64,000 nt of DNA. Origin: Candidatus Falkowbacteria bacterium RIFOXYC2_FULL_36_12 (GTDB lineage Bacteria > Patescibacteriota > Patescibacteriia > UBA11705). The number at the start of each line of letters is the position of its first letter. Position 1 is the first letter of the stretch. The stretch lies in assembly GCA_001778235.1 (NCBI GenBank), contig MFGJ01000007.1, positions 193,476-257,475 of the forward strand, given 5' to 3'. Below, in pieces: positions 23,857-64,000 of this stretch. The position numbers and the translations under genes are program-made. The notes beneath the pieces are model-generated. The model was not told the origin of the DNA, did not search any database, and saw nothing but the letters and a program-made list of their open reading frames with translations.

Positions 23857-23900
23857 TTTTTGAAAAATTGTTTAACGGTTATTTTCGTATATAAATATCT

Positions 23901-25136: not shown

Positions 25137-25141
25137 TCACT

Positions 25142-27111: not shown

Positions 27112-27227
27112 TGTTGACTCCGCTCGTGGTTGGGACTGCGATGATATTTGATTTTATCACTAAAAATATGTTTTGTCAATAATGTAAAATCTGTATAAAA
27201 AAATAAACGATGTAATAATCGTTTACC

Positions 27228-27890: not shown

Positions 27891-28007
27891 TGGTGGTCCC
27901 TCCTGTTGGCGTAAGCGGACATATAATTATATAATTTATAATATAATTTGTCAATAGCAGGAAAAAATTGTATTAATGGTACTGGCTCTGCTAAATTGAA
28001 GACTTTA

Positions 28008-28931
28008 TTATGTGTTAGAAAGAAATGCAGAGACTAATTTGATCGCTTGCTTGGGTGAAGATATCCAATGGATATAATCATCCTTGCGATACCAAGTCAA
28101 TTGCCTTTTGGCATAATGCCGAGTATCTCTTTTTATCAACCGAATTGCTTCATTTAAATCATGGATTCCATTCAAAGAATCAACAATTTGACGATAACCA
28201 ATACCGGTCATGGCTGGAGAATCTGATTTGTAGCCTTTTTTTATTAAAAATTTAACTTCCTCAACCAAACCTTCGGTAATCATTTGATCAACCCTAGTAT
28301 CAATTTTTCTGTAAAGTTCTTCCCGATTCTTCTCAAGGCCAAGAACTAAAAAATCAAATTTAGGCTCAAGGTTGGATTTTTTTTCAATGGTTCCTGCTGT
28401 TCGTAGGAGTTCAAAGGCTCTCATCACTCGACGAGGATTGCTTGTATCAATTTTTTGCTCAATATCAGGATCTTGCTGAACAAGTTTTTTAACCATGTAT
28501 TCCAAGCCATGCTGTTGGTATTCAGATTCAATTTTTTGACGGAAGCTTTTGTTTGGTGCGCCAGGTAAAGCATAGCCATGGACCAAAGCAGAGGTATAGA
28601 GTCCTGTTCCACCGACGACAACTGGGTCGCTTTTTTCAATATCAATAATTTTTTTAACTTGTTTCAACCAATGATCCAGACTGAATGGTTTGTTTGGGTT
28701 GACAATATCAACCATAAATTCTTCCACACCATCAACAATATAATGCTTTTTAAAGCCTTTTCTTAGCCATTTGCCATTATCTTTATTAGTACCAATATTC
28801 ATGTTTTTGAAGACTTGCCTAGAATCAGCTGAAATCAAATAGCCACCAATATGTTTGGCGATCTTATGAGCTAAATTTGACTTGCCTGATCCGGTTGCTC
28901 CGACAACAACAATAATTTTTTTCTTTTGCAT
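28008..28931 (-). CDS. miaA: tRNA dimethylallyltransferase
   Basis: IIVVVGATGSGKS P-loop and MiaA profile. The internal Met at 28931 is the likely start. Confidence 0.85.
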   Translation of the reverse strand: MQKKKIIVVVGATGSGKSNLAHKIAKHIGGYLISADSRQVFKNMNIGTNKDNGKWLRKGFKKHYIVDGVEEFMVDIVNPNKPFSLDHWLKQVKKIIDIEKSDPVVVGGTGLYTSALVHGYALPGAPNKSFRQKIESEYQQHGLEYMVKKLVQQDPDIEQKIDTSNPRRVMRAFELLRTAGTIEKKSNLEPKFDFLVLGLEKNREELYRKIDTRVDQMITEGLVEEVKFLIKKGYKSDSPAMTGIGYRQIVDSLNGIHDLNEAIRLIKRDTRHYAKRQLTWYRKDDYIHWISSPKQAIKLVSAFLSNT

Positions 28932-29000
28932 ATTTTGACTTAAATTGCTATATTTAAGTAATAAACAATATAACACAATAAACTGGATTTATCAATAATT

Positions 29001-30275
29001 ATGAACTACCAACAATGTCTTCAATATTTAAACACTTTTAAAAGGTTCGGTGATAAACCGGGTCTTCATAGGATTAGAAAAATATTGTCTAAACTTGGCA
29101 ATCCAGAAAAAAACATTAAATGTGTACAAATAGCTGGTACCAATGGTAAGGGTTCAACCGCAGCCATGAGCGCGTCAATATTGCAATCAGCTGGCTACAA
29201 AGTAGGGCTTTATACCTCGCCGCATTTGTTTCAATATAATGAGAGAATTAAAATAAATAATCAAAATATTTCTAATGCTGATTTTTGCCGACAACTGGGA
29301 GTGATAAAAAAAGTGTTGAAGAAAAATCCAGAAATAAACCCTGCTTTATTTGAGATATTGACTGCAATTGCCTTTTTGCAGTTTAGAGACAAACAAATTG
29401 ATATCGCGGTGCTGGAAGTCGGATTGGGTGGTAGGCTTGATTCAACCAATGTAATAAAAGCAATTGTAGCTGTAATTACCAACATTGACCTTGAGCACAC
29501 GGAAATACTGGGCAAAACAAAAGAAAAAATTGCGACAGAAAAGGCAGGCATTATCAAGTCAAATTCAGTTGTAATAACAGGAGAAACAAATAAAAAACTA
29601 TTAAAAATATTTGGTCAAATTGCGAAAAAAAATAAATCAAAGTTTTCAATTTTCAAGAAAAATGAAATCAGTCTACAAAAATACTCGGCACATGGTCAAA
29701 TATTTAATTTTAAAAAATATAAAAATTTAGAAATTCCCTTAATGGGTCAGCATCAACTCCTGAATAGTTCTTTGGCTGTGATAGTGGCTGAATCTTTACA
29801 AAAAAAAGGTTTTGATAATATTGATGAAAAAAGCATAAGACAAGGATTGAAGAATGTTAGTTGGCCTTTGCGATTAGAAATTGTCCATCAAAACCCCAAA
29901 ATTTTAATTGATGTGGGCCATAATATTCATGGAATAAAAGCAATCAAACAATCAATTGATGAAATTTTTAAAAAATCAAACAAAATTTTAATTTTGGGTT
30001 GTTCATATGACAAACCATATAAGCAAATGGCAAAAACTTTGTCAGAGTTGTCAGATAAAATAATTTTAACAAAAGCAAAGTATCATGGAGAAGAAATCAA
30101 AGAGCTGGAAAAAGTGCTTGATAAATCAGGAAAAACGATTTATCTGACAAACAATGTAACCAAAGCTCTTCAGATTGCAAAAAAAATTGTTAAAAGAAAT
30201 ACCCTAATTATGATTTTGGGGGGATTATATCTGGGAGCTGAAGCCAGACAAAAAATTAAAACTATTTTTAGATAA
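29001..30275 (+). CDS. folC: Folylpolyglutamate synthase / dihydrofolate synthase (Mur ligase family)
   Basis: IAGTNGKGST P-loop and Mur-ligase central and C-terminal domains. Confidence 0.75.
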   Translation: MNYQQCLQYLNTFKRFGDKPGLHRIRKILSKLGNPEKNIKCVQIAGTNGKGSTAAMSASILQSAGYKVGLYTSPHLFQYNERIKINNQNISNADFCRQLGVIKKVLKKNPEINPALFEILTAIAFLQFRDKQIDIAVLEVGLGGRLDSTNVIKAIVAVITNIDLEHTEILGKTKEKIATEKAGIIKSNSVVITGETNKKLLKIFGQIAKKNKSKFSIFKKNEISLQKYSAHGQIFNFKKYKNLEIPLMGQHQLLNSSLAVIVAESLQKKGFDNIDEKSIRQGLKNVSWPLRLEIVHQNPKILIDVGHNIHGIKAIKQSIDEIFKKSNKILILGCSYDKPYKQMAKTLSELSDKIILTKAKYHGEEIKELEKVLDKSGKTIYLTNNVTKALQIAKKIVKRNTLIMILGGLYLGAEARQKIKTIFR

Positions 30276-33283: not shown

Positions 33284-33370
33284 CGAGAACAGCAAGTACA
33301 GCAAGTAAAGCGAGAACAGCCCGCCTACGCTAAAGCTATGGCGGGTAAACGAGAACAGCAAGTAAGGCAA
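33284..33370. repeat. R1 intergenic repeat copy (9-mer tandem plus CCCGCC..GGCGGG hairpin) inserted between mraY and murD
   Basis: Contains the hairpin CCCGCCTACGCTAAAGCTATGGCGGG, identical to the one at 2580-2605. Confidence 0.8.
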
Positions 33371-33403
33371 ATAAATTTGAAAATAAATTAATATTAATAA
33401 CTT

Positions 33404-34995: not shown

Positions 34996-35036
34996 TGCAA
35001 ATTTACGAATACTACAAATATTACAAATGCACATAA
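34996..35036. repeat. R3 repeat, forward arm (AAATTTACGAATACTACAAATATTACAAATGCAC) flanking the GxxExxY gene
   Basis: Its reverse complement is found at 35428-35470. Confidence 0.7.
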
Positions 35037-35427: not shown

Positions 35428-35470
35428 CAGTCGTAGTATTTGTAATATTTGTAGTATTCGTAAATTTGTA
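35428..35470. repeat. R3 repeat, reverse arm (TAGTATTTGTAATATTTGTAGTATTCGTAAATTTGTAA), ending 7 nt before the ftsW ATG
   Basis: Inverted copy of 34996-35036. Confidence 0.7.
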
Positions 35471-36639: not shown

Positions 36640-36830
36640 CTAATTTTATACTGAAACAGTTTGACCGCGAACTACAAACAAGTTTAGGTGCATGGGAAGA
36701 AAGCTCAATGTAGGCGAAGTTCAGAGTGAGAAGTGAGAGGTGTTTGATTATACCCTGAAATCCATCTTCGTTAAAACTTCGATGGACAAGCAAGTTCAGG
36801 GTGACAATAGGAGAGAAACAAAAAAGAAAC
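36640..36830. repeat. R2 repeat region (nested hairpin units ...CCCTGAAATCCATCTTCGTTAAAACTTCGATGGACAAGCAAGTTCAGGGTGACAA...)
   Basis: The same unit recurs at 63455-63520 and 63825-63885. The related hairpin TTCAGGATGACAAG is at 37290-37320. Confidence 0.75.
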
Positions 36831-39569: not shown

Positions 39570-39662
39570 GTTACAAAATTACGAAAAATTACAAACATTA
39601 CAAAAGTTAGAATTAGTGAGTTACGAAACTACAAAAGATTACGAACATTACAAAAATTAGAA
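39570..39662. repeat. R3 repeat arms (TTACGAAA/ACTACAAAAG units, two copies) flanking GxxExxY copy 2
   Basis: The inverted partner is at 40047-40088. Confidence 0.65.
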
Positions 39663-40046
39663 TTAGATATTGTTTAGAATTCTATAAATATCTGCTTTTT
39701 CTGACCCAAAAAGAACCAGCAATCCCAATTTATACCCAGACAACTTCAAATATTCAGTTACCTGATCAAAATCTTTTTGGTATAATCTTTTACCTACTTT
39801 CACTTCTATAACGATTTTATCATCAATAATAAAGTCAAAATATCTGTTGCTTAATTTTTCACTATATAATGTTAAAGGAACTTTATATTGTTCTTCAAAT
39901 GAAATATTGTTTTGTTTTAATAGCTTCCCCAAACTTTGGCAATAAGTTTTTTCTCTGTATCCAGGACCATGATATTTAAAAACTTGAAAAACAATCCCAT
40001 TCAAAACATAACTTAGATCTTTATATATTAGCTTATCTACGCTCAT
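39663..40046 (-). CDS. GxxExxY-family protein (PD-(D/E)XK nuclease-like), copy 2 (start MSVDKLIYKDLSY)
   Basis: A paralogue of the gene at 35043..35423 (GYREKTY, DFIIDD, EVK). The ORF-track start at 40097 is an over-extension into the repeat. Confidence 0.65.
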   Translation of the reverse strand: MSVDKLIYKDLSYVLNGIVFQVFKYHGPGYREKTYCQSLGKLLKQNNISFEEQYKVPLTLYSEKLSNRYFDFIIDDKIVIEVKVGKRLYQKDFDQVTEYLKLSGYKLGLLVLFGSEKADIYRILNNI

Positions 40047-41492: not shown

Positions 41493-43331
41493 TTAGTTAA
41501 AACAATTTATAGTTTCAAACCAAATTTCACCCTCGCCACGATAATCTATTCGGCCTTGACCAGATTCAAACAGATTATTACATTCAATCGAAGCCAAGGC
41601 ATAATCAAAATCAGACCAATCAGCATTAGCACAATTGTAATCAACCCAAGGTCTTCCTCGCTGACACAATTCTTCAAAACTAATGTCAAAAACTAATCTT
41701 TCAAACTGGGATAAATTTCCGGAAGAACCATACCAGATATGAACAGTGTAACCAACTGGGCAAATAATTGTACATGATAACAAGTTATCCGACTGATTGC
41801 TCTGATCATCAATAGTAACATTTTCAAAATCTTCATCAGTCTGGCCATCACAATCATTATCAACATTATCAAAAATTTCTTGACTGGCAAGAACTTGTTC
41901 CTGTGTCAAGACCCAATGGAAATCTTGGCAAACTGATATTTCAGGCTGACATTGACCAATATTATTTGTTTCTTCTGACCCAGAATAACTTTGGATAACA
42001 TCATCAAAGCCACATTCTCTGTTGATTAAAGTGAAATCAAAACATTGTTCTTGACTGGACTCTTCAATCATAGACCCACCATACTGAAAACCTGATTCAA
42101 ATTCTGATTGGCTTAGATGAAAAATCTGTTGATAATCAAACCCCAGTCGCCAAAACGCACCTTCGTTTTCAAATGGATAAATATTTCCCGAGTTACCTGC
42201 AAGATATATTGTGCTAGAAGAATTTGACTTTAGTAACGATCCTGTCCTGAAATATAAAAATCCACCATCCTGACAACTCTGTTTTTCTCGGTTATAATTA
42301 AAAGTTGATACTGGCCAAAAATTAGAGGAATTCAGATTCCAGGATTCCAGTGTTGAAACAGAAGCAAATTCATAAGAAAAACAAATTAAATTATTTGAAT
42401 CAAGCCTTTCAAGCATCAAATACTTTTGACCATCAGTAATATACTCGCGGATTGGAAGCCAATCTATATCTTCGCCCCTTTCATAACAAGCAAACTCTTC
42501 CTGGCTAATATAAACAATTTTCTGCCAATCAAACTCGTGAGCGAGGAATACTTGTTCATTTTCAATCAACCGTAATCTCTGGGATTCCAACAAATAGATT
42601 TCTGATTGTCCATAAATCTGAACCAAGACATTGTCAGGATGCCATAAAGATTGCAGAGAATTCTGAAGAATAAATTCTGTAGGGTTGACCCAATTATCAT
42701 GGATAGTATGAGGTTGATTCCAACCTTCACTACTGTAACCTCGAACATAAATTGCTGGGTTTGTATTATCGAATCTTCCTAGTCTAATACCGAAATGCAG
42801 ATGATGCCAGTTAACGGTGGTTGTTGGACCATGCCAATATGATGCTACCTTGCCAACATACTGTCCTTTGTAAACAATTGAACCGACTGGAGCCAATCCT
42901 GATTGATTTTCATAATTATAATTGGTTGAACCTGATTGAAGATGGCCAAGAAGAACTGTAAATTCAGTGCCTGTTTCCAATTGACAAGCAATAACAAGAA
43001 CATAGCCACGATAGTTTGGACTGGCAGAACTATCTGAACCATAACCAGTAAAACTGATATTATCACTTATCATTACTTGACCTGTGCATGGTGAATAAAC
43101 AGCTGTACCAACAGGTGTTCTGGAAACTAAAGTATCTTCAGCTAAATGATAACCATTAAAAGCAGAATTAAAACCACCAAAACTGAAGCCCTGAATTTGC
43201 CACCAATTTGTTTTCAAGGGGAAACCGAGAGAATATGTGACTGGTAAATTGTTAGCTTTGGCTTCGGCAATACTCCAAAAAATTGTTATGAGAATAATGC
43301 TCCAAATAAATAAAAACCATCTAATTCTCAT
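41493..43331 (-). CDS. Secreted peptidase-M23-domain protein with a long Cys/Asp-rich C-terminal extension
   Basis: Signal peptide (MRIRWFLFIWSIILITIFWSIAEA). M23 motifs HLAED..., GTAVYSPCTGQV and HLHFGI. The C-terminus has DNDCDGQTDED metal-binding-like repeats. Confidence 0.6.
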   Translation of the reverse strand: MRIRWFLFIWSIILITIFWSIAEAKANNLPVTYSLGFPLKTNWWQIQGFSFGGFNSAFNGYHLAEDTLVSRTPVGTAVYSPCTGQVMISDNISFTGYGSDSSASPNYRGYVLVIACQLETGTEFTVLLGHLQSGSTNYNYENQSGLAPVGSIVYKGQYVGKVASYWHGPTTTVNWHHLHFGIRLGRFDNTNPAIYVRGYSSEGWNQPHTIHDNWVNPTEFILQNSLQSLWHPDNVLVQIYGQSEIYLLESQRLRLIENEQVFLAHEFDWQKIVYISQEEFACYERGEDIDWLPIREYITDGQKYLMLERLDSNNLICFSYEFASVSTLESWNLNSSNFWPVSTFNYNREKQSCQDGGFLYFRTGSLLKSNSSSTIYLAGNSGNIYPFENEGAFWRLGFDYQQIFHLSQSEFESGFQYGGSMIEESSQEQCFDFTLINRECGFDDVIQSYSGSEETNNIGQCQPEISVCQDFHWVLTQEQVLASQEIFDNVDNDCDGQTDEDFENVTIDDQSNQSDNLLSCTIICPVGYTVHIWYGSSGNLSQFERLVFDISFEELCQRGRPWVDYNCANADWSDFDYALASIECNNLFESGQGRIDYRGEGEIWFETINCFN

Positions 43332-43914
43332 TTCTACTCTCCACTGCAACGGGGTGATTGATGGAAAATGAATTAATAATCAGATTATAATTTTCTGAAA
43401 TTAACTTATTTAAATCCTGATCTGAAAATTGGGACGGTACGGATTTCAAGACAAACATTACTTCAAAGCCAGAAGAAAGATATACATAATTTGTTTGAGG
43501 AATTAATCCATCATCATTTTGTCGCAAAATAATTTTTTTGAACTTATAACAAAGTTCATAGTCAGAATAATGCCACATATTTCTATTTTCAACCCTGAAA
43601 TGAATGGTCATTTCCGGTAATTGTTGAGAAAAAGCCTGGTCTTCAATCCAATAATCCTCAAGCTGTAATTTTACCTGTAGGGCAATAAGTTCCTCTGAAT
43701 TTTCTTTCAATTTTATTACTTTGAATTGATTGTAATAATTAAAACTGAAAAATTCATTTCGATAAACACCAAGATTGGAATCCAAGGTTGAAATTGTTCT
43801 ATTCCTCATTTGCGTTTCAGCAGTGATTGAAGCATCACTATCATTTGGGTTATTGATTTTATCATCGTAGTCACAACTTACAATCAGCAATAACATAAAC
43901 CATAATTTTTTCAT
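43321..43914 (-). CDS. Hypothetical lipoprotein (start MKKLWFMLLLIVSC)
   Basis: Lipobox LIVSC; no family recognised. Confidence 0.4.
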   Translation of the reverse strand: MKKLWFMLLLIVSCDYDDKINNPNDSDASITAETQMRNRTISTLDSNLGVYRNEFFSFNYYNQFKVIKLKENSEELIALQVKLQLEDYWIEDQAFSQQLPEMTIHFRVENRNMWHYSDYELCYKFKKIILRQNDDGLIPQTNYVYLSSGFEVMFVLKSVPSQFSDQDLNKLISENYNLIINSFSINHPVAVESRNEN

Positions 43915-44132
43915 GATTGCACCCCTTTCCTTGGGTGTTGAGGGTTTGGTTGTAAGGAACAAACATCTGTTTTGATAATTTTATAATACTGCATAGAAAC
44001 CCAAGATTTAAGGAAAATGTTTTCCAATTTTGACAAAATTTTATAATAAAAAAAATTCCTGGAAGATAAGGAATAATTGAAGATAAATAATTGTTGGCAT
44101 GGACCGTCAAGAATTATTTAGTAAAGACACTT

Positions 44133-52844: not shown

Positions 52845-53021
52845 ATAATAGTATTATATACAAAAAGGTGTAATAGTCAAAAATTCTTTTTTTATAAATG
52901 ACTCTGCAAAAAACTTTTTTAAGGATGTAATGAATTAAATTCTCTGATGAATTTCATTCATAATGCTCAATCGAAAGAACGCATTCATAATGCGTTCTTT
53001 TTTATATAGAAACTTATTTTT

Positions 53022-56000
53022 TTACGGTTTTATTAAGATTCGTCCAGCAAAGCGGGTCCAAGGCTCTGGGGCTGTTCTTGAACATTCACCTTCATAACAT
53101 CCATCGGTGACCCAGGTAGATTTCTGATGGCCACATGATCCATTGCACCAACCCCAGCTGTCTTTAACCTGAACCTGCGGAATAAATTGGCAGGCTTGTT
53201 CGGTGGCATTCCAGCAATTTGAGATGACGCTACCACTACAGACCCGGTCACCCTGTCCCTCGCAGGTGTATCGATGTTCAAATTTGAAAAATTCTTGAGG
53301 ACTGCAGGCATCGGTTGTATCACCAAAAACATCATATTGAGTACCAAGACATGAAGTGCCGACAGGACAATCTGTTGTTTCGCGACAAGCATAATCTGGA
53401 ATATATTTTCCAGCATTATCAATTTTACAACGCTGGAGCAATTCACCGGCTAATTGCTGGCAAACTGGTTTGTGATTTTTCAATTTACCTTCATCCAAGC
53501 CAACGACTGTGCTACCATCATTCCAATCAACCAGAACTGAAGTTATTGGCATTTGATTGGAGTTGGCCCAAGCATAGAATGTCATCTGGGCAGAATAATC
53601 CTCGCCTGAATAACGAATATCGCCTCGAGATTGAGTACCAATACTGATGGTATTAATATCAGCGGCTGAAGTTTCATTGCCAGTAATCGGATCAGAATTA
53701 CCGGTAAAGACAACTCCGGCAACAATTGGAGGCTGATGTGAATTGGTTAAGGCAAAATCACCAGCGACTGGCATAGAACCAGCAAGATTCACATATTTAT
53801 CATTTTGATATATCCATCGATTATAAACATTGGCAAATAAATTGTTGATGAAGACACTATAGCCTGATGACTTGGTAACATTGTCGCAATTGGCTGTTTC
53901 TCCACCTTCACAACTGATTGGCTTACCGGCTGTATGGGCATTGTTGCCTAAGCCAGCGAAAAATGGTGTACCACCTGGATTTTCAGCTAGATCAGTGCCA
54001 TCATCATTGGTTGAGTCAAATGGGACATAGACAGGATCACCTTCATCTGTACTAACAGCAGAACCATAGGCACTACCAAATGGGTTTAAGGCAGTAGTTG
54101 GAGACAAGCCGTATTCAAGAGATCTGGTAGTCGCGTCCCACAATTTATCATGGGTTGCTCCAGACTCTAGTACAAGGTTATCCCCAGTCTTTAAATATTT
54201 ATAGAAATTGTCAGTATAAGCTTTGTTACTACCAAGAGCATCTTCTTCTACAACCTGAATAACATCCTGACAATATTCACCTTTTAATAAATCAAGGGTA
54301 AAATCCTGCCAACCAATACTGTTGGAATCATCGCAGATAGAAGCCCAGACACCTTTGAACTGATCATTTTCATCAAACAGCACTCTAACACCGAAATAAT
54401 TATCCTCACCCCAACAATGACTGTTTATCTGCCGAGCACTTTGAGCTAATGTATTATAGTTACAATAACCAACTTGGCTCTGGTCTGACTGACAGTACCA
54501 AATAGTTTCTCCCTCAACTTGTTGGTTGGCATTATTGTTGCAAGGGAATTGAGCTGGGTTTAGGTCATAATCTGTAGCTGGATTACACTGAACATTGGAA
54601 CAGTAGTTACCATAATAACTGTCCTTAATACATTTTCCATTGCCACAATCATTATCTTCGGTACAGCCTTGTGATGACCAATTTACACCATGCAAGACAC
54701 CTGCTGGAATAGGCTTAAAAACATCTTCTGCATCACCAAGAACTTCATTGGTAATCAAATCTTTATTTTCTACTCCTCCATCCTTGACAAACATGAGATA
54801 TTTATCATCATCAAATTCACCAAGTTTCTTGCCACTGCCACCATATTGATAGAGGGTGTCACTCTCAAGGAATCGGCTGGAGACAAAATCTTTTTCAGAC
54901 CAAGTAATCTGCCAATAAGTCCATTGACGATATTTGTCTTGATCACGAGTGAAATTGTAAGTCGAGAGATTGCCTGTGACCAAAGTATTTGGAGCTGAAC
55001 CACTTGGATTAATAGACCGAGCTGATTTTTTGAAGAAATTGTAACCTTGAAAGTCTTGGCTGTGACTTTTTTCATACCAGGTTGTAGCTGATTCACCTTC
55101 GCACCAATCTTCGTCTTGACCTTCATTGCAAGCAAAAGAAAAGCCTATTAAATCTTGTTTATAAAGAGGTTCACCACTATAACCAGTGAAATATTCGCGA
55201 TAATCATTGCCACCTGAAGGGATATAATAACGATAATCATCAAAAATCCTGGCTCGATAGGAAATCGGATCTTCGTACGGTGTATCATCTGTTTCTAATC
55301 CGGCTGCACCGAGACAGTATAAACGACCACCATCATTTTCAAAAGCATTTGGATCATAACCAGCTTCATCATACTGGGCATATAGATCCTGAAGACCGGA
55401 CAATGAATCAACAGGATACCAGGACAAACAAGCGGTGTCGCCCTGCCCACTAAGTTTGAGACTGCCATCTCGTTCAAGACAATATCCCTGCATGCCAAGA
55501 TATTTTACCCGATCAATATCCTTCTTCATACACATACCGAGCTGTCCACTGTCACTGCAGTCATATGATTCGCACATTGTACTTCGATCAATAGCATTTC
55601 TGGTAATGTTGTCATCCTCTGTAATCAGACCAGCGCAAGCACATTGCCTATCTGGAATATCCTGACAAAAGCCGACTTTGTCAGTTTCAATATATTGGCT
55701 GATTGAATTTGGAAAATATTTGTCTATATATCCGCCACCAAAACTAACCTTGGTATAAGCACAACCGCAGGCAAAATTTTCATCGCCTTCGCAGGTCAGA
55801 ACATTTTCATAGGCTTGGGCAGTTTGATTGCCTAACTTTTTAACACTGGCATTGAATGGAGAGTCTGCCTGCGGATAAGCTCGGCATTCAGCAGAACTGG
55901 CGCTGATAATATCAGCGGTAGCAACTCCTTCAACGCAAACATCACCAAGACAGCGACGGCCAGCTCCGCAGGCGTCATCTGAAGTACATGTTTGACTAGT

Positions 56001-59000
56001 AAGATGAACCAGACGATAGTCTTTTGGTAGAGCATTGTCACGAGCATTTATATTGTAGGAATTATAAAATTGTAGTGGATATCTATTTGAAATAGAATAA
56101 CCACTGTAATCAAGCTGTCCCCATGAAACTCCCTGCGTTCGGCGGACTTGAGTATAATTGGTTGCATTTAATAATTGATTGGTTGTAAGGAGTGAATCTG
56201 ATGGACCCTCACTGACAAAATGACTACATTGACCAGTATTCTCTGCCTCACCAATAGCATCACAAAGGCCAAGTCCCTGACAGACGAATTTCGAAGTGTT
56301 GGTAACTGGATCAAAAACAGTTTGTCCGCTCTTGCAGTCATACCATTCTGCACATTCGCGATCACGGACAACTTTTATTATACGATTTGAATCCTGAAAA
56401 ATATTAGCTTCATTGGCAGCGTAACACAAGACAGACTCATAAGTACATTGATTAACTCCGACTGGGCCAGCACTGGCACTCGGGGTTGTCCCGAGCAGTG
56501 CGAAAACGCTATTTGTAATTGCAGTTCTTTCTACGGAATTAGTGTCTGGTTGGTTAAAAATAGCTCTGACCTCTGGGCAATAATTTGTGTGCAGAGAGCA
56601 ATCAATATTTAAATTTTCTAGTAGTAATTTCAAACCTTGGAGTGCCTGATCAGTGGAATTGGCAAGAGGAGAAACACCTCGACCACCATCAGCAGAACTG
56701 GCTTCATAGGTTGAAGCAGAATTAAACAAAAGCTGATTAAATCCTTGGGCATTTTTGACAGAAGTGTCATTGAATAATAGACAGCCATCTTTTTCACTAA
56801 CAGTAGAGCAAGACTGGATGTCTTCATTGTTTAAATAATAATAAGCTGAACCTTTGGTTGAGCCACCTTCAACATCAACTGGATCAAGAAAAGCAGTACA
56901 TGAATCATATTTACTCTTGCATTGACCAACCCAGCCATCATAGGTGGCAGTACTTGAATGCAATAAATGACCCGTGCCATCAGCGTAATAATCAAAAGTT
57001 CCAGACGGACAAGAATCTTCAGTGCCTGTGACGAACCAACCTTCATTGCCGTCAGAACCTACCTTGTATTCACAAGTGCGTTCACCCGGCTCCTTGAAAT
57101 AATAAGTGTTGTTGTCAGAAGTAGTAAATTCATCACAGCGATTATCTCTGCCGAGGCATAAGTATTTATCAAGATTATCAAAATCTAATTTGAAAAAGTT
57201 AGTAGCCCAATTATCAGACTCTATTTGATTGTTCTGATCATAATTTGGGACGCCGAGCATGGTACAACCAATACCAAATACTTTACACCTAACATCATCA
57301 GATAGGACTAAGTACATCAAATTGTCTTGATCGGTTGTAAAGGCTCCATTGTCATTATCATAAGATTGACTAAATGGGTTAGTCGAATTTTGGGTATCAA
57401 TAACTGCTTGACAGCCAACTGCTGACTGACGGCAAATATTGCGAAAACCTCGAAGTGTCTGACTGCCGGCAACACTACTTTCAAATTCACGACAACCAAG
57501 CTGGGCTTGTGGCAAATATTGTTTGGACAAGGTCTGATCGCAAGCTGTCGGAGTTGACCAACTATTAGTAATCAAATAATGTGTATCGCTAAGTCTCTTG
57601 ACTTCAATACTATCAAAATAAATCGTGCCACTATTTGATTGGATATTTATTTCATTAACCGCTTCGGTTGGAACAAATATGGCTGTATCATAATGTAAAA
57701 ATTGTGTCTGATCAGCCGGAGTTGACTGGATTTCCACCCTTGACTCAAGGCTTGAGCTACCAAGATTAATATCAGCTCGGGCAGTTGAACCAGGGCTCTC
57801 TGCCCAGAAGGAAACAATATATGATTCACCTGGAATAAGGGAGTTTGATAATCTACGACCGGAGGTTTGGCCAGAAGTGAGCTTCAATGATTTTCCGCCA
57901 TTGATTGAAGACCGTTGACTGATTTCTCCTCCAGTCCAGATTGTACTGGCATCAAAAGTGTCATTTAACAATTGGTCAACATCATTGGCTGTATTACCGC
58001 GGTATTCACGACAGCCAGCATTTGATTTATCACATGACTTGCTAAAATCAGGGTTAGCCCAGAAAACACACTCATTGTCAGCTCGCCATTCACCACCTCG
58101 ACTAGTGCATTGGATCTCTGCATCATATTTAAGTGTTCGGCGGTATGGATGACAATTTTGGCTACATAAAACTAAATTATCTAAAATATAATATGAAACA
58201 TTGCCATTTTTATCATAAAGTTCACGGCATTCAGGAAAATTTATTGGGTCAAAAGTTGACGGACTACATTCACGAGTTATAGGCGACTTCTGGACGACTT
58301 TTGGTACAGAATTATTCATCTCAAACTGATGTGCCTGGAGTTGATAACCAGAAACATCGGTTCCGACCCAAGTATAATAAGTGCCACAACTTGTATCGGT
58401 TTCAGGATTGTCTGATTTTTTGCAAAGTCTAAGATCAGAATAATATTCAGTTCCTTCACCACCTGCATCTAAATCATCTAAATTGGTAAATTCTTCACAA
58501 CTGACTTGATTAGCTGAACAGCTTTCAGCAGTTGATGGCATGAAATATAATGGGAACTGGGTTGAAACAAAATTTGTAGAGGCCTGGGAATAAGTCGCAT
58601 ACCCAACACACTGTGAAGGACAGAGATCTTCTGGTGAAGCAACAGCGGTAACGCTGGTGCCACCATCGGTTGGATTGAAGAGCTGACAGCCAACTTCTTC
58701 AGCGGCACAAAGCTCGGCAAAGTCAGAACATTTTTCTGAATTATTACTTGTTTTATCAAGAATATCTGAAACATTAACTGGGGTATACCAAGTTGTTTCA
58801 CCTTGTCTTATCCCACGACTAAAGGCTGGATCAGTATATAAAGCTGAATCATAACAGCCATAATAATCAGGAGCAATTTTGATAAAATCCAAACCAATAG
58901 TCCCATAATCACTGTAATCATAAACTTCAAATGGACTGACTGCTTCTGAAATTTGGACTTCATCAATGACTGAACTCTCAATGCCTGAAAAACGCATTCC

Positions 59001-61481
59001 AAGATAAGCAACATCTGGAGCTAGACGAACAATCTTGTTGATTCTCTGCCAACCGCCACCCAAATCCTCAATTTGAGTGGTATAAATATAAGAATCATTT
59101 AATGGATTTAAATTTTCTGTGGTTGAAGTAAAGGTAACATCAAAAGTTCCACCCATTCTCCGCATAGAGTAGTTTAACCTAGCAACTGTTGGAATGAGTT
59201 CAACAACTTGACTACCAGAAACAACGGCAGAAAATAAATAATAACGAGAGTATTTCAATGGAGTAATTTGTAAATCTTGAGTGAGATACAATTGACCTGA
59301 AGCTCCAAGTGATACAGAATTTGAACTTTGATAACCTGTATCTGTAACAATAAAATTATCAGCTTCAGAATTGTTCCACCCAGTAATCATATCAGCGGTT
59401 GTATCATTGGCCTCACCAACAAAAAGATCAAAATTACTATTTGGAACCAAGTTAGCACCAAAACGATTGCTAGTATTTATTACCCTAGTACAACCTTCAT
59501 CATTTGGTGAACAACTTTCAGTTTCAATCTGACTGTTCAAGTGGACAATTGAACTACCTGTTTTGTAATAATCTGCGGGATAGTTTTCAGCCCAAACCCG
59601 ATCTGTGGCAGTAGAAGAAGTCAACCAGCTACTATACCCTAGACAACCAACTGAATTAGCATCACAGCTACCAAAATCTACTGTATTTAATAAATAATTA
59701 AATTTTTTACCGTCACGCTGGGTCAGAGTAGTACAAGAATCAGCGACTGCAGGACAAATATCGCCAGTAAATTTCCAAACATTTTCTTCAGCGGCACAAT
59801 AAGCATAATGGCAATTGCCCTCCTCATCAGTGGCAACACAACTTTTTACATCAGCACAATATTCAGCTCGATCTGTAGTATTTGAGGCAAGTAGAGTTGG
59901 TCCGCTGGCAACAGCATCACAACGAGCTTTGGGATATTTGAGAACCCAATCAGGGTCAACTAAATAACGATAAGGATCACAACTGGTAACTGCGGCAGGA
60001 GCATTGAAACAGCCAAGCATAAAACTCAATGTCTTGGCAGGATCGCCATTGGCGGAAACTGCTTGAGCTGCGAGCTCCCAACCAATTGGAATAATTCTGG
60101 CTTTTCGCAATTTTACAAGATTGTAATAACAATAACCATTTAAGTAACAATCATCATCTAAATTGTCTGAATTTTGTGGGCTGATAAAGGCTAAATTGGG
60201 AATTAATTGTTGATTTAGCGCTTCTTGAACGGTTAACGGAGTACCATAATTTGCAGTGCGGACAGCATCAGCAAAATCTTCGGTTATAACACAATTATTT
60301 GGACCTCGATTGATTGTACCAGGATCACAAGTGGTAAACTCTGTGAGCTGGTCAATTTCTCGGGAAGAAGTTTTAAACCCAATTTTTTTTAAGCGAGAAA
60401 TCTGATTCTCGGCTACAGTTTTGTAATCAAAAACACCTTGTGATGGATTGTAAGAATTGGAGACATAGCCTTGGGATATACGGTCAAACAAAGCATTGAC
60501 AAATCGTTGAGAAACAAATGAATTCAAAAAGGTTGAACCAATTGCTTCTGGAATTGATTCAATAACATTCCAAGCTTTTTCTTCTTCAGATGCAGGAGCG
60601 TCTAGGGTTTTCGAAATTTGACTTGATAATAATTCTTTTGAAACATCTGGCGGATTTTGGATGGTTGTTCCTGTAATATCGGTTTTGGGTTTGAAACTTC
60701 CCTCGCCTTCAAGTCGTTCTTCTTTGGCTACCTGCTCTTGTTCTCTCTGGGCAGATTCAGCTAAATCATAAGTATATAAATAAGTACCAATATCACTTTG
60801 TTTTGGTTCAAAACCTTTGACAACTTGTTCTATTGCCACAAAAGAAGCAACTGACGGATTGTCAACATATTTACTCTGTAATTCATCGGCAAAAGCGCTC
60901 CAGCGATCCTTTACTTTGTTCCAAGAACAACGACGATTTTGGACTTGAGCATCAAATGGGTTGCGTTTGGTATTGACCTCAAGAGAACGAATTACTCTAA
61001 GTTTTACATCCAAACTTGGTTCGCAGATGTCAAACTTGTCAGCCCATGGTTGAGCTGTACTCAATTCACTCAAAACATCGGTCAAAACAGCTTCACGAAC
61101 ACGGTCAACATAAGTGCTCCAAGTATCAAGTTGCCAAACAGGTTGTTGACCCCACTCGCCTGTTTCAAGCCAATTAACACTCTGCTCGGCCAAATCCTGC
61201 GCAACTGTAACGGCTAAATTTTTTAAATTTATGGCGGCTGTACGGATCAGAACTTTTTCAATCTTATCTCCAATCGTCTCTTCAAGCTTATTTGTTTTTT
61301 CCGTTATTATACGGTCAGTCTCAATGGCAATATCAACTGAAGTACCTGCAGGGTCAATTACCGGCAATTCAGCAAAGGCAGTTTTGGGTGGAACTATTAT
61401 ATTGGCAAAAATCAGAAAAACAATAACAACCAATAATGTAAATAAAGGTTTAATGTAGCGACAATTTTGAACTTTTTTCAT
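53022..61481 (-). CDS. Giant secreted or surface protein (2819 aa), Cys/Gly/Asn/Ser/Thr-rich with an N-terminal signal anchor
   Basis: An uninterrupted 8.46 kb ORF. N-terminus MKKVQNCRYIKPLFTLLVVIVFLIFANIIVPP. It holds more than 100 Cys, including a recurring module C-T-[SE]-D-[DN]-x-C-G-x-G-[RK]-C. Confidence 0.8.
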   Translation of the reverse strand: MKKVQNCRYIKPLFTLLVVIVFLIFANIIVPPKTAFAELPVIDPAGTSVDIAIETDRIITEKTNKLEETIGDKIEKVLIRTAAINLKNLAVTVAQDLAEQSVNWLETGEWGQQPVWQLDTWSTYVDRVREAVLTDVLSELSTAQPWADKFDICEPSLDVKLRVIRSLEVNTKRNPFDAQVQNRRCSWNKVKDRWSAFADELQSKYVDNPSVASFVAIEQVVKGFEPKQSDIGTYLYTYDLAESAQREQEQVAKEERLEGEGSFKPKTDITGTTIQNPPDVSKELLSSQISKTLDAPASEEEKAWNVIESIPEAIGSTFLNSFVSQRFVNALFDRISQGYVSNSYNPSQGVFDYKTVAENQISRLKKIGFKTSSREIDQLTEFTTCDPGTINRGPNNCVITEDFADAVRTANYGTPLTVQEALNQQLIPNLAFISPQNSDNLDDDCYLNGYCYYNLVKLRKARIIPIGWELAAQAVSANGDPAKTLSFMLGCFNAPAAVTSCDPYRYLVDPDWVLKYPKARCDAVASGPTLLASNTTDRAEYCADVKSCVATDEEGNCHYAYCAAEENVWKFTGDICPAVADSCTTLTQRDGKKFNYLLNTVDFGSCDANSVGCLGYSSWLTSSTATDRVWAENYPADYYKTGSSIVHLNSQIETESCSPNDEGCTRVINTSNRFGANLVPNSNFDLFVGEANDTTADMITGWNNSEADNFIVTDTGYQSSNSVSLGASGQLYLTQDLQITPLKYSRYYLFSAVVSGSQVVELIPTVARLNYSMRRMGGTFDVTFTSTTENLNPLNDSYIYTTQIEDLGGGWQRINKIVRLAPDVAYLGMRFSGIESSVIDEVQISEAVSPFEVYDYSDYGTIGLDFIKIAPDYYGCYDSALYTDPAFSRGIRQGETTWYTPVNVSDILDKTSNNSEKCSDFAELCAAEEVGCQLFNPTDGGTSVTAVASPEDLCPSQCVGYATYSQASTNFVSTQFPLYFMPSTAESCSANQVSCEEFTNLDDLDAGGEGTEYYSDLRLCKKSDNPETDTSCGTYYTWVGTDVSGYQLQAHQFEMNNSVPKVVQKSPITRECSPSTFDPINFPECRELYDKNGNVSYYILDNLVLCSQNCHPYRRTLKYDAEIQCTSRGGEWRADNECVFWANPDFSKSCDKSNAGCREYRGNTANDVDQLLNDTFDASTIWTGGEISQRSSINGGKSLKLTSGQTSGRRLSNSLIPGESYIVSFWAESPGSTARADINLGSSSLESRVEIQSTPADQTQFLHYDTAIFVPTEAVNEINIQSNSGTIYFDSIEVKRLSDTHYLITNSWSTPTACDQTLSKQYLPQAQLGCREFESSVAGSQTLRGFRNICRQSAVGCQAVIDTQNSTNPFSQSYDNDNGAFTTDQDNLMYLVLSDDVRCKVFGIGCTMLGVPNYDQNNQIESDNWATNFFKLDFDNLDKYLCLGRDNRCDEFTTSDNNTYYFKEPGERTCEYKVGSDGNEGWFVTGTEDSCPSGTFDYYADGTGHLLHSSTATYDGWVGQCKSKYDSCTAFLDPVDVEGGSTKGSAYYYLNNEDIQSCSTVSEKDGCLLFNDTSVKNAQGFNQLLFNSASTYEASSADGGRGVSPLANSTDQALQGLKLLLENLNIDCSLHTNYCPEVRAIFNQPDTNSVERTAITNSVFALLGTTPSASAGPVGVNQCTYESVLCYAANEANIFQDSNRIIKVVRDRECAEWYDCKSGQTVFDPVTNTSKFVCQGLGLCDAIGEAENTGQCSHFVSEGPSDSLLTTNQLLNATNYTQVRRTQGVSWGQLDYSGYSISNRYPLQFYNSYNINARDNALPKDYRLVHLTSQTCTSDDACGAGRRCLGDVCVEGVATADIISASSAECRAYPQADSPFNASVKKLGNQTAQAYENVLTCEGDENFACGCAYTKVSFGGGYIDKYFPNSISQYIETDKVGFCQDIPDRQCACAGLITEDDNITRNAIDRSTMCESYDCSDSGQLGMCMKKDIDRVKYLGMQGYCLERDGSLKLSGQGDTACLSWYPVDSLSGLQDLYAQYDEAGYDPNAFENDGGRLYCLGAAGLETDDTPYEDPISYRARIFDDYRYYIPSGGNDYREYFTGYSGEPLYKQDLIGFSFACNEGQDEDWCEGESATTWYEKSHSQDFQGYNFFKKSARSINPSGSAPNTLVTGNLSTYNFTRDQDKYRQWTYWQITWSEKDFVSSRFLESDTLYQYGGSGKKLGEFDDDKYLMFVKDGGVENKDLITNEVLGDAEDVFKPIPAGVLHGVNWSSQGCTEDNDCGNGKCIKDSYYGNYCSNVQCNPATDYDLNPAQFPCNNNANQQVEGETIWYCQSDQSQVGYCNYNTLAQSARQINSHCWGEDNYFGVRVLFDENDQFKGVWASICDDSNSIGWQDFTLDLLKGEYCQDVIQVVEEDALGSNKAYTDNFYKYLKTGDNLVLESGATHDKLWDATTRSLEYGLSPTTALNPFGSAYGSAVSTDEGDPVYVPFDSTNDDGTDLAENPGGTPFFAGLGNNAHTAGKPISCEGGETANCDNVTKSSGYSVFINNLFANVYNRWIYQNDKYVNLAGSMPVAGDFALTNSHQPPIVAGVVFTGNSDPITGNETSAADINTISIGTQSRGDIRYSGEDYSAQMTFYAWANSNQMPITSVLVDWNDGSTVVGLDEGKLKNHKPVCQQLAGELLQRCKIDNAGKYIPDYACRETTDCPVGTSCLGTQYDVFGDTTDACSPQEFFKFEHRYTCEGQGDRVCSGSVISNCWNATEQACQFIPQVQVKDSWGWCNGSCGHQKSTWVTDGCYEGECSRTAPEPWTRFAGRILIKP

Positions 61482-61498
61482 ATTTAAATATTGGCTAG

Positions 61499-62332
61499 TT
61501 AATTTGAAGTTACTTCTTTATTGGCTTCTTCCCATGCTTGCTTAAAAAACGAAAGTAATTCTTCATCGCTAAGGGAGCTGACAATATTTTCAGGTACACC
61601 ATTTTCAATCAAAATAATTCGAAGCTCGGCGGGAGTATAATCTTCTGCTTTGGTTTTGGTTTCAATGCTTACCGGAGTTTTCAGGGGTTGATCACCAATG
61701 GTATCTCGGTAAAATTTCAAAAGCTCATCATCGGAAAAAGCCACAATGTCTGCTTCTGAAAACTTACCAGACAACCGCAATAAATCTCTTAATTCTTCCG
61801 GGGTAGGAAGGTCTGTAGCGATGGGACTCACAGTTGAACTATCTTCGGTGTCACTAGTGACAAAACTATTAAAACAGGTTTTTCCTGTCGGACAATTTGG
61901 GTCAGTGCCATTATCAATCTCCTGTTTATCATTCAAATCATCACTGTCAGAATCAGCCAAATATGGACTGGTAATATAAATATTTAATTCTTCATAATCA
62001 TTGACGCCATCTTCATCAGTATCTTTACTCCTCAAATCTTCTTCTTCTGATGATAAAACCGGTTCAATAGACTTGGCATTTTCAGCATCAACTCGTTCCT
62101 GCCCACCAGGGACAGGAACAGCAAAAAAACTTTTGGCACCAAAACCAACCACAAGCAATAAAACAAGCACCAATCCAGCTAAAATACCAGACAAAACTTT
62201 CTGTCGTTTGGTTAAGGTTCCAGAGGGTAATTCTTCAATAATCGGCGGTTTATTTTCCAATAAACCTAAAGGTTCCTCTTTGTAATCATCAAAAGAGGAT
62301 CTGCCCGGATTTTGTAAGCGATCTTGTCCCAT
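61499..62332 (-). CDS. Bitopic membrane protein with thrombospondin-type-3-like Ca-binding Asp-rich repeats
   Basis: One TM (ILAGLVLVLLLVVGFG), then DTDEDGVNDYEE and DSDSDDLNDKQEIDNGTDPNCP. It lies 17 nt upstream of the giant gene. Confidence 0.6.
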   Translation of the reverse strand: MGQDRLQNPGRSSFDDYKEEPLGLLENKPPIIEELPSGTLTKRQKVLSGILAGLVLVLLLVVGFGAKSFFAVPVPGGQERVDAENAKSIEPVLSSEEEDLRSKDTDEDGVNDYEELNIYITSPYLADSDSDDLNDKQEIDNGTDPNCPTGKTCFNSFVTSDTEDSSTVSPIATDLPTPEELRDLLRLSGKFSEADIVAFSDDELLKFYRDTIGDQPLKTPVSIETKTKAEDYTPAELRIILIENGVPENIVSSLSDEELLSFFKQAWEEANKEVTSN

Positions 62333-62401: not shown

Positions 62402-62505
62402 AAGCGAGACAGCGAGTACAGCCCGCCTACGCTAAAGCTATGGCGGGTAAACGAGAACAGCCCGCCTTCGCTAGGTGTAGCTATGGCGGGTAAACGAGTA
62501 AAGTA
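62402..62505. repeat. R1 intergenic repeat copy with two CCCGCC...GGCGGG hairpins
   Basis: Hairpins at 62421-62447 and 62460-62490. Confidence 0.8.
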
Positions 62506-62570: not shown

Positions 62571-63401
62571 TTAGACTACTTTTGATAAGTTAACCCAGTC
62601 ATCAAGAGAAAGCTGTTGGGCCCTAGTAGTGGGGTCAATATTGGCCTTTGTTAAAATAGCTTCTGCCTGTGAATTTGTAATATGCAAGCCATTAGCCAAA
62701 TTATTTTTTAATTGTTTTCGCTTGGCAGCGAAGCTGATTCGAATAATCTGGAAAAATTTTTTAACATCAATTTCAGGGAATTTATTTTTGATTGTCAGCT
62801 TGACAATTGAGCTGTCAACTTCTGGCGCGGGAATAAAACATTTTCGAGAAACTGTTGATACAATTTCAATATCAGAATAAAACTGGGCGGAAATCGCTAA
62901 CTTGCTCATTTCACCAGGAATTGAAACCAATCTTTCAGCAACTTCTTTTTGCACCATTAAAACCATTTCCGTTGGCGGATATTTGAATTCTAGGAATTTT
63001 CGAAGTATCTTCGAAGTAATATTGTATGGGATATTGGCAACAATCTTGTATGGCTGATGATCAAAAAAATCTTCAATATCAACTGGTTTTAATTCAAGTG
63101 CGTCTTGATTTACAATCATCAACTTTGAATAATTTTTATTTTTTCTAAATTCCTGTTTCAAAACATAGTTCAGTGTTCGATCAAGTTCAACTGACACAAC
63201 TTTTTTTGCTGTCTCCAAAAGTTGCTCGGTTAAAATGCCAAGACCCGGTCCGATTTCGAGGACATTGTCAGATGTTTTCAGATCTGCGGATAATACAATT
63301 TTTTGTAAAATATTTTTGTCTACCAAAAAATTCTGGCCAGCGGATCGGCGAGGAATAATCTGATATTTTTTCATTAAAGCTTTTATATTCATACTATTCA
63401 T
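62571..63401 (-). CDS. rsmA: 16S rRNA (adenine1518/1519-N6)-dimethyltransferase KsgA/RsmA
   Basis: RSAGQNFLVD...VLEIGPGLGILT SAM-binding motifs. Confidence 0.85.
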   Translation of the reverse strand: MNSMNIKALMKKYQIIPRRSAGQNFLVDKNILQKIVLSADLKTSDNVLEIGPGLGILTEQLLETAKKVVSVELDRTLNYVLKQEFRKNKNYSKLMIVNQDALELKPVDIEDFFDHQPYKIVANIPYNITSKILRKFLEFKYPPTEMVLMVQKEVAERLVSIPGEMSKLAISAQFYSDIEIVSTVSRKCFIPAPEVDSSIVKLTIKNKFPEIDVKKFFQIIRISFAAKRKQLKNNLANGLHITNSQAEAILTKANIDPTTRAQQLSLDDWVNLSKVV

Positions 63402-63439: not shown

Positions 63440-64000
63440 TTATAATGAATTATACCCTGAAATCCATCTTCGTTAAAACTTCCGACTACGCTCTTTTGGG
63501 AGCTTCGACGGACAAGTCGATGGACAAGTAAATTCAGAGCCTGCCCTGAATTTAGTTCAGGGGTGACAAATGGGAGATGCTGAAAACAGTCCCCAGAGAT
63601 CCTGAAACAAGTTCAGGATGACGAGTGTAGTGTTCAGTATGACGAGTGTAGTGTTCAGGATAACGAGTGTAGTGTTCAGGATGACGAGTGTAGGGTTCAG
63701 GATGACGAGTGGTGTGTTGTCCTGTCACTCTGAACTCCTGCCTGTCGGCAGACAGGTGTTTCAGAGTCTCCTGAATTGACCATGTAGGAAGGAGGGAAAG
63801 AATTTAAATTTTGAATAGTTATACCCTGAAATCCATCTTCGTTAAAACTTCGATGGACAAGCAAATTCAGGGTGACAAGTGAGAGGGCGAAGAATTATAC
63901 CCTGAAACCACGCACTATAAACAAGTTTAAGTGCAAGACAAGCAAGTTCAGAGCCTGCCCTGAATTTAGTTCAGGGGTGACAAAATCTAATTATTCACCG
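63440..64000. repeat. Dense R2 repeat cluster including a 21-bp tandem array (GACGAGTGTAGTGTTCAGGAT, about 5 copies, 63617-63725) and several CCCTGAA...TTCAGGG nested-hairpin units
   Basis: Read directly. The repeats are contiguous with no unique spacers, so this is not a CRISPR array. Confidence 0.8.

Follow-up and report, generated by a model that had tools for sequence, protein, structure and literature searches.

Patescibacteria, which are ultra-small bacteria, account for a large share of bacterial diversity, and most of them appear to be attached to other cells. In Peribacteria, which belong to the Candidate Phyla Radiation (CPR), large cysteine-rich extracellular proteins have been noted and a role in attachment was proposed for them (Anantharaman et al, 2016; PMC4736985). 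Here, we describe a pair of genes carried on the minus strand of a 64,000-nucleotide stretch of the genome of Candidatus Falkowbacteria bacterium RIFOXYC2_FULL_36_12 (contig MFGJ01000007.1, positions 193,476 to 257,475; hereafter, the window), which encode a giant cysteine-rich protein of 2,819 amino acids (aa) and a small putative membrane partner. Like the Peribacteria proteins, the giant protein comes from a CPR host, carries a predicted signal peptide, is large, contains several per cent cysteine and is unannotated. The Peribacteria proteins, which we liken to it by description only, are multi-copy, with a mean length of 1,655 aa and a cluster of 14 genes, and vary between strains (PMC4736985). 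The giant protein, in contrast, is encoded by a single gene for about 3,000 aa at a fixed position linked to ksgA, with a conserved small partner and often with a type IV secretion system (T4SS) downstream.

The attached lifestyle of Saccharibacteria depends on their T4SS. A review underlines that the system is essential in this group and considers that it may form a pilus (PMC12857230). A 2025 survey described the T4SS of Patescibacteria as MPF-FATA-like, with VirB3, TrsD, VirB6 and VirB2-like genes near virB4 (PMC12102498). In that survey, PrgB profiles were negative across Patescibacteria, no PrgB-type adhesin was found for the T4SS, and VirB5 was found in one genome alone, whose VirB4 is of the MPF-T (diderm) type, and in none of the Patescibacteria clade. 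The same survey listed ksgA among the genes enriched near virB4 and showed unannotated neighbours in grey, and it makes no use of the word "giant". PrgB-type adhesins (pCF10 class, MPF-FATA) are, as the giant protein would be, large secreted surface proteins encoded upstream of VirB6/VirB3/VirB4-type genes of monoderm T4SSs, and are thought to make cell–cell contact. The giant protein differs from PrgB in that it shows no sequence similarity to it, has no LPXTG motif and combines cysteine-rich regions with carbohydrate-binding module (CBM)-like domains in an unrelated architecture; in the window, moreover, no T4SS is adjacent to its gene. What we report as new is a conserved ksgA–small–giant module that frequently heads a T4SS cluster, the link to the T4SS being circumstantial and absent in this window.

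Results

An intact giant gene from a large, unannotated family

The giant gene occupies positions 53022..61481 (minus strand) and, in agreement with the single open reading frame (ORF) reported in a first-pass annotation of the window, runs uninterrupted from an ATG start through 2,819 codons to its stop codon. The small gene (61499..62332, minus strand, 277 aa) ends 17 nt upstream of it. A 238-nt spacer separates the small gene from ksgA/rsmA, which encodes the 16S rRNA dimethyltransferase (62571..63401, minus strand; Pfam RrnaAD, E 6.5e-67) and adjoins the pair upstream as a conserved neighbour.

When 5.8 billion proteins were searched, 109 relatives of the giant protein with lengths of 1,800–3,600 aa were obtained, the best of them 49% identical. 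All source names listed for these relatives were "hypothetical protein", and the named sources were Falkowbacteria, Uhrbacteria and the "Parcubacteria/Patescibacteria group". At E<1e-3, a profile of aa 30–530 matched 1,685 representatives of 50% identity clusters, and 1,124 were matched at E<1e-30; almost all of the best 150 matches were about 3,000 aa long and had the domain at the N-terminus. At least 580 genomes in a collection with one genome per species carry a relative, Magasanik- and Komeilibacteria included. The lineages with the pair, which going by record names are Falkow-, Uhr-, Magasanik- and Komeilibacteria, make up what we take to be the GTDB class ABY1. The family is large, unannotated and uncharacterised, and for most of its parts no relatives are known. 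We found no description of it in the literature; a paper on Lipocone and Omnitrophota giant proteins deals with other proteins. Many of the species-representative metagenome-assembled genomes with the giant gene (L009, L013, L014 and others) are titled "uncultured Gammaproteobacteria bacterium", which is evidently a placeholder or a wrong label.

We found nothing in favour of an assembly artefact or a decaying pseudogene. The frame is uninterrupted over 8.46 kb, collinear full-length relatives of 2,600–3,600 aa are present in hundreds of genomes and the cysteines are conserved, which leaves this explanation with a negligible probability.

The pair follows ksgA and frequently heads a T4SS cluster

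The coupling of the two genes that the first-pass annotation had proposed is borne out by their neighbourhoods. Of 80 species-level loci, 79 have a small-gene homologue on the upstream side of the giant ORF, and the remaining one carries no upstream DNA; ksgA stands ahead of the pair in 64 of the 80. Where genes were called, the small/giant pair was present in 10 of 10 loci and an annotated ksgA (RrnaAD) preceded it in nine; the exception, L089, has an unannotated 254-aa gene at the ksgA position. Further upstream, these gene-called loci often contain sua5, prfA and groES–groEL.

Downstream of the giant gene, T4SS genes are found in about half of the loci. The order in L005 and L006 is the giant gene, a VirB6-like gene (polytopic, 700–1,100 aa), a gene of about 500 aa, PrgI (VirB3), a TraC/TrsD-like gene and the VirB4 ATPase, and in L004 a VirB6-like gene comes directly after the giant gene. 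The giant and VirB6-like genes are separated by 15 nt in L006 and by 19 nt in L004, which suggests that they are co-transcribed there. A VirB6-like gene lies within 1.9 kb downstream in 11 of 41 genome loci. For metagenomes we considered 35 loci that were anchored on the C-terminal domain and had at least 9 kb of downstream DNA each; T4SS genes follow the giant gene in 18 of them, all on the same strand and starting 0–7 kb past its stop codon.

A gene for an M23 peptidase recurs in this neighbourhood. L002, L087 and L089 have an M23 gene together with a large gene 1.5–9.6 kb downstream of the giant gene; this large gene could be identified as VirB6-like in L002 only, its counterparts in L087 and L089 being unannotated and truncated where the locus ends. 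In L003, an M23 gene lies at about +9 kb. The window contains an ORF (41493..43349, minus strand, 618 aa; overlapped by another ORF at 43321-43962, minus strand) that matches M23 weakly (22.6 bits against a Pfam cut-off of 28.7) and is related (E 1.5e-11) to the M23 gene preceding the VirB6-like gene in L002, to which the M23 genes of L087 and L089 are comparably placed. When the window was searched for T4SS genes, this ORF was the sole trace of the cluster to be recovered. No T4SS genes come after it, and it may have been left over from the ancestral gene arrangement.

Small genes of the selfish-element type (DUF559, 23S_rRNA_IVP, GIY-YIG) were repeatedly seen immediately behind the giant gene, and in one case ahead of it (L001:19363-19710 and 20977-21156; L005:14344-14706; L089:19463-19843; the P0090 locus; L088:8247-8585). 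The 3' junction of the giant gene may be an insertion hotspot that separates it from the T4SS cluster. On the contig of the closest relative (L001), from 29168-29237 onward, a gene for a 1,991-aa SpvB/TcdB/RHS (YD-shell) toxin-like protein lies about 10 kb downstream of the giant gene.

Cysteine content and N-terminus of the giant protein

The giant protein contains 107 cysteines (3.80%, compared with 1.06% in the 41 other window ORFs). The very high cysteine content noted earlier was therefore real, but the equally high content claimed for Gly, Asn, Ser and Thr was overstated, as Ser, Thr, Asp, Asn and Gly are enriched by a mere 1.2–1.45-fold. In an alignment of 110 sequences (the giant protein and its 109 relatives), 73 of the 107 cysteines are conserved in at least 80% of sequences, many of them invariantly. 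Three small C-x5-C-x5-C motifs that had been singled out as disulfide modules are indeed present (aa 1832–1844, 2273–2284 and 2699–2711), although of the three the family conserves just the first. The conserved and dominant repeat is instead a C-x6-C hairpin, usually with a glycine preceding the second cysteine and an aromatic residue 2–3 positions past it. It was counted 13 times, whereas 2,000 shuffled sequences contained 3.2 copies on average and 12 at most.

The N-terminus consists of a charged n-region (MKKVQNCRYIKP), an 18-residue hydrophobic core and the sequence PPKTAFA|ELPV; a hydrophobic core with a small-x-small site is present in 178 of 199 full-length relatives. The first-pass annotation had assigned a signal anchor to this segment. 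As AFA before ELPVID corresponds to a site of the signal-peptidase-I type, we consider a cleavable Sec signal peptide (aa 1–37; 61371..61481) more likely. With this layout, the giant protein would be secreted and not anchored by its own N-terminus, in line with the earlier view of a giant protein, rich in disulfides, that a CPR bacterium secretes. The C-terminus (...RFAGRILIKP) carries no LPXTG sorting signal.

The N-terminal domains and a possible relation to VirB5

Below, each region of the giant protein is given with its minus-strand coordinates and its mean identity to the family, a figure computed from aa 38 onward. The putative signal peptide is followed by a helical N-domain (aa 38–373; 60363..61370; 21% identity), which opens with ELPVIDP and holds the family motif AYD.A..ASGG.GQ.P (ETGEWGQQP in the window protein). 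Next comes a small alpha/beta domain (aa 374–520; 59922..60362), the best conserved part of the protein at 44% identity, which contains NLVKLRKARIIPIGWELAA and LVDPDWVLKYP as well as invariant R, E and D residues. An AlphaFold2 model of aa 30–530 built from 19 sequences had a mean per-residue confidence (pLDDT) of 54, with low-confidence long helices and nothing but helix for the N-domain part (aa 30–373; pLDDT <50) and a confident prediction for the alpha/beta domain (pLDDT 80–92). A Foldseek search with this model against PDB and BFVD gave no match. Profile searches of PDB with the N-terminal, core and C-terminal alignments returned nothing meaningful, a 14-3-3 match at E 0.06 being dismissed as chance.

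The beginning of the N-domain shows short resemblances to proteins of conjugation systems. VirB5/TrbJ (PF07996) and DUF4141 proteins, like the giant protein, have a signal peptide followed at once by [IL]PV.D, a long helix and G-G-x-G, and are encoded beside VirB6 and VirB4. The giant protein could accordingly be an enlarged VirB5-like protein whose helical N-domain would attach to the channel of the T4SS or to a VirB2-like pilus, as VirB5/TrbJ/TraI do, and whose other ~2,400 aa would form a receptor-binding head. Its mature N-terminus, ELPVIDP, resembles the start of TrwJ, QGIPVFD, and a second motif (ASGG.GQ.PL versus TGGRGLGDL) is collinear with the first; the N-terminal motif is present in 31 of 199 relatives from several clades. 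The giant gene stands immediately before a VirB6-like gene in several loci, and VirB2-like pilins are known for the Patescibacteria T4SS, for which no VirB5 has been reported within the clade. The DUF4141 gene found between traG and traJ of Bacteroides conjugative transposons is presumably TraI. One relative of the giant protein echoes DUF4141 weakly in Pfam, and genes of that family lie between traG (VirB4) and traJ (VirB6) in these transposons (PMC10434189).

The profile comparisons argue against such a relation. Against an alignment of 29 VirB5 sequences, hhalign gave a probability of 1.0% (E 0.057, 73 columns), and against TrwJ one of 0.7%. No Pfam match to VirB5 (PF07996) was obtained, and DUF4141 (PF13605) reached 16.6 bits over 18 residues in the best relative (cut-off 30) and did not match the window protein. 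The N-terminal motif is missing in 84% of relatives, and the N-domain model is of low confidence and matched no structure. VirB5 proteins are about 230 aa long, and their likeness to the giant protein comes down to two short motifs. We regard a VirB5-like protein as improbable.

Duplicated cysteine hairpins and two CBM-like domains

The middle of the protein alternates between cysteine-hairpin regions and CBM-like domains. Cys-hairpin region 1 (C-x6-C; aa 521–670; 59472..59921; 37% identity) is followed by CBM-like domain 1 (aa 671–870; 58872..59471; 20%), Cys-hairpin region 2 (aa 871–1160; 58002..58871; 40%), CBM-like domain 2 (aa 1161–1305; 57567..58001; 24%) and Cys-hairpin region 3 (aa 1306–1695; 56397..57566; 33%). 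With hhalign, region 1 aligned to regions 2 and 3 at 62% and 73%, and region 2 to region 3 at 93%. The assignment of CBM-like domain 1 is based on its homology to domain 2 (aa 665–875; probability 93%, E 3.5e-7, 84 columns). Since the two CBM-like domains are homologous to each other, as are hairpin regions 2 and 3, the middle of the protein arose by duplication of a unit of hairpins plus CBM. An AlphaFold2 model of aa 861–2060 from 36 sequences was rich in beta-strands, with a mean pLDDT of 66 that rose to 80–93 between about aa 930 and 1360.

In this model, aa 1161–1305 has a CBM jelly-roll fold (CBM4/6/9/16/22 type). Foldseek against PDB matched the domain to CBM16, CBM22, CBM4-2 and CBM6 (E ~1e-6; 126–160 columns; 10–16% sequence identity), with a root-mean-square deviation of 3–6 A and a target-normalised TM-score (TMt) of 0.54–0.78 for 2zex, 4xup, 2y6j and 5fui; CBM-like receptor-binding domains of binary and Cry toxins were matched too. 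No other part of the giant protein matched a solved structure or a curated family. Pfam CBM_4_9 (PF02018) covers aa 1172–1240 of the window protein at E 9e-5 and 23.3 bits, which is under the gathering cut-off of 25.9 bits, and precomputed PF02018 matches exist for many relatives. This was the only signal obtained when the whole giant protein was searched against Pfam, NCBIfam and PDB sequences. The jelly-roll fold of CBM4/9/16/22 modules is thus shared by aa 1161–1305 and, through internal homology, probably by aa 671–870; unlike those modules, the domains of the giant protein are set in a non-enzymatic, cysteine-rich context, and their sequence identity is as low as 10–16%.

CBM4/9/16/22-type modules normally accompany glycoside hydrolases. 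The giant protein might on these grounds be a secreted polysaccharide or cell-wall enzyme, in which the CBM domains target an unrecognised catalytic domain such as the alpha/beta domain at aa 374–520. That domain is the most conserved one and has invariant R, E and D residues, and M23-type peptidase genes occur in the neighbourhood in relatives and in the window. However, neither Pfam and NCBIfam nor PDB sequence profiles and Foldseek revealed a catalytic family, and with its 2,800 aa and about 50 disulfides the protein far exceeds the enzymes known to bear CBMs. We therefore think that an enzyme is very unlikely.

A conserved frame with a hypervariable region

Downstream of the hairpin regions lies a conserved cysteine-rich core (VxRDRxCxEW...GYCxExD...CxxWxP; aa 1696–2060; 55302..56396; 34.5% identity), for which there was no PDB sequence match. 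It is followed by a hypervariable region (aa 2061–2580; 53742..55301; 19% identity, 57% gaps), the length of which ranges from 0 to 1,106 aa in relatives. The protein ends with a cysteine-rich C-terminal domain (aa 2581–2819; 53025..53741; 33%) containing the PKD-like motifs VDWNDG ... HRY ... DSWGWCNG. We rejected a PKD assignment, as Pfam PKD was found in none of 16 C-terminal segments and the resemblance is confined to the WGD ... HxY motifs. Relatives of 2,600–3,600 aa align to aa 50–2050 and 2580–2819, and aa 2050–2550 are aligned by 6–17 of the 109. The fastest-evolving parts are the CBM domains and aa 2061–2580, compared with 33–44% identity in the scaffold, a pattern that would be expected of a fixed frame with changeable binding surfaces.

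Several known kinds of variable or giant surface protein were considered. A target of a diversity-generating retroelement was dismissed, as no part of 53022-61481 is repeated elsewhere in the window beyond chance-level 70% matches, which leaves no template repeat; no reverse transcriptase was found among the 37 window ORFs scanned with Pfam, 9 smaller ORFs (at least 150 aa; stretches 13367-17896 and 26473-28976) being outside that scan. An RTX toxin or adhesin was rejected because HemolysinCabind (GGxGxD repeats) gave no Pfam match at E up to 1. The HlyD/ABC/MacB genes of the window lie about 27 kb from the giant gene and are of the MacB type, as opposed to the type I secretion partners expected for RTX; they form an efflux set (21235-26389, plus strand) of an HlyD-like adaptor, an ABC ATPase and two consecutive MacB/FtsX permease paralogues. 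A PrgB or other LPXTG adhesin was discarded on the absence of LPXTG and of any Pfam match, and an S-layer protein on the absence of SLH or other S-layer family matches in Pfam and NCBIfam. The two families whose detection would have changed the first-pass description, RTX and S-layer, were consequently not recovered.

The small partner and an alternative role in the envelope

The small protein agrees with its initial description as a bitopic protein with Asp-rich repeats encoded 17 nt upstream. Its 277 aa comprise a short cytoplasmic N-tail, a KRQK patch, one transmembrane helix (~aa 46–68) and DTDEDGVNDYEE / DSDSDDLNDKQE repeats, with two to three TSP3-type, Asp-rich and predicted Ca-binding repeats at aa 104–146, a conserved C147–C153 pair and two C-terminal "SDEEL" helical repeats. 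Pfam TSP3_bac (PF18884) matched two stretches of it (E 7.8e-4, 19.7 bits), under the 25-bit cut-off, and gave faint to weak matches on its relatives. In an alignment of four loci, the transmembrane helix and the D-rich repeats are conserved and DTDxD..DY.EL..SPYL.D.D.D is invariant. Bacterial TSP3-repeat surface proteins such as CglD and MtsD of Myxococcus share the DxDxDGxxDxxE repeats with the small partner, but the repeats alone match (E 0.003–0.03, far under family cut-offs) and a protein of 277 aa with one transmembrane helix is not their orthologue.

A membrane protein of this kind could also be the base of a structural layer. The giant protein would then be an envelope component, similar to a surface layer or sheath and needed by every cell, without a functional tie to the T4SS, and the synteny would reflect a shared position near the origin. 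The fixed position beside ksgA, prfA and groEL and the presence in at least 580 species genomes are in keeping with a scaffold, as are the conservation of about 2,000 aa with invariant cysteines and the loss of T4SS linkage in the window and in Falkowbacteria relatives. Ca-binding repeats, too, are common in surface-layer systems. However, no S-layer family was matched, and the hypervariable region and fast-evolving CBM domains fit ligand recognition better than a lattice. Nothing points to a high abundance of the protein, and in L004 and L006 the distance of 15–19 nt to the VirB6-like gene suggests that the two genes are transcribed together there. On balance, we view a purely structural role as unlikely.

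Surroundings of the pair in the window

As described in the first-pass annotation, a hairpin follows the giant gene. It resembles an intrinsic terminator (52974..53000, minus strand; 12 bp, -13.6 kcal/mol, z -2.7) and is succeeded by UUUCGAUU. A gene for a DUF6624 protein comes next, with a strong, near-consensus promoter-like site of its own at 52880..52853. The remaining window is ordinary chromosome with gyrB, ribosomal protein genes, nusG, mur genes, ftsW, gatB, trpS or tyrS, and typA, and its G+C content is 32–41%. No tRNA genes and no Rfam families at gathering score were found in window positions 1-64000. One 414-aa ORF (18247-19491, plus strand) joins a thymidylate kinase (aa 10–202) and a thymidine kinase (aa 232–407).

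Several intergenic repeats were observed, some of them around the pair. A 69-nt repeat with a GC-rich hairpin core (CAGCCCGCC...GGCGGGT) is found at 2565-2633, 33305-33373 and 62407-62475, the other copies being 93% and 72% identical to the first and the third lying within the spacer between ksgA and the small gene. Just upstream of ksgA, a tandem array at 63590-63739 contains 5–6 copies of a 21-nt unit (GTTCAGGATGACGAGTGTAGT). Dispersed repeats of 48–60 nt lie at 36748-36807, 63450-63509 and 63819-63878, and at 63523-63570 and 63937-63984, the best copies being 96–98% identical. Before the ftsW-like gene, a perfect 31-nt inverted repeat (34998-35028 / 35438-35468) encloses a stretch of 409 nt, and related "TACAAATATTACAAAT" repeats also occur at 14195-14282 and 39570-39666.

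Discussion

We favour the interpretation that the giant protein is a surface-displayed, glycan-binding contact protein, tethered by its small partner and ancestrally coupled to the T4SS, and assign it a probability of roughly one half. The giant protein would be exported by Sec and fold into a disulfide-stabilised extracellular frame, in which a conserved scaffold of helical N-domain, alpha/beta domain and duplicated Cys-hairpin modules carries two CBM-fold sandwiches and one hypervariable region. The small protein, with its N-terminus inside and its Ca-binding TSP3-type ectodomain outside, most likely keeps its giant partner on the cell surface, as its topology suggests. Together, the two proteins most likely recognise and bind polysaccharides on the surface of a partner or host cell, by means of the CBM domains and the variable region. 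Ancestrally, the pair would head a monoderm-type T4SS operon and be expressed with the channel genes, and it therefore probably acts as the contact element of the T4SS. The adhesin-like role suggested in the first-pass annotation is thus compatible with the two CBM-fold domains and the fast-evolving aa 2061–2580, but the accompanying anchor role can be deduced from topology only, and we found no evidence for a chaperone role of the small protein.

A number of points weigh against this interpretation. The 64-kb window has no T4SS genes and two Falkowbacteria relatives have no T4SS cluster within 10 kb, so the pair functions, or is at any rate retained, when the two gene sets are not physically linked. 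Shared gene order in related genomes does not count as independent evidence, and both gene sets may simply be located near the replication origin (PMC12102498). Few adhesins would be expected to conserve about 2,000 aa at 33–44% identity, a pattern more typical of structural proteins or parts of a machine. CBM folds are not confined to lectins, the CBM_4_9 match of the window protein itself scores under the Pfam cut-off, and the structure models are confident only in part (mean pLDDT 54 and 66). Finally, the tether role of the small protein is purely our inference.

A more specific proposal is that the giant protein and its small partner are the missing contact element of the Patescibacteria T4SS, either as a giant VirB5-like pilus-tip or channel-distal protein or as a functional analogue of PrgB. 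The CBM domains and the hypervariable region would select the host, and the genes would merely have been separated from the T4SS in the lineage of the window. We put this forward tentatively, as a possible but rather doubtful scenario.

No relatives with solved structures exist for the C-x6-C hairpin modules or for the alpha/beta domain. Host range is a trait that the fast-evolving CBM domains and the variable region may determine. The enrichment of ksgA near virB4 can be explained by the giant family, which in many lineages lies between ksgA and the T4SS genes. With no adhesin found for the Patescibacteria T4SS in the 2025 survey (PMC12102498), the occurrence of the giant family at this position makes it a concrete candidate for the contact role.

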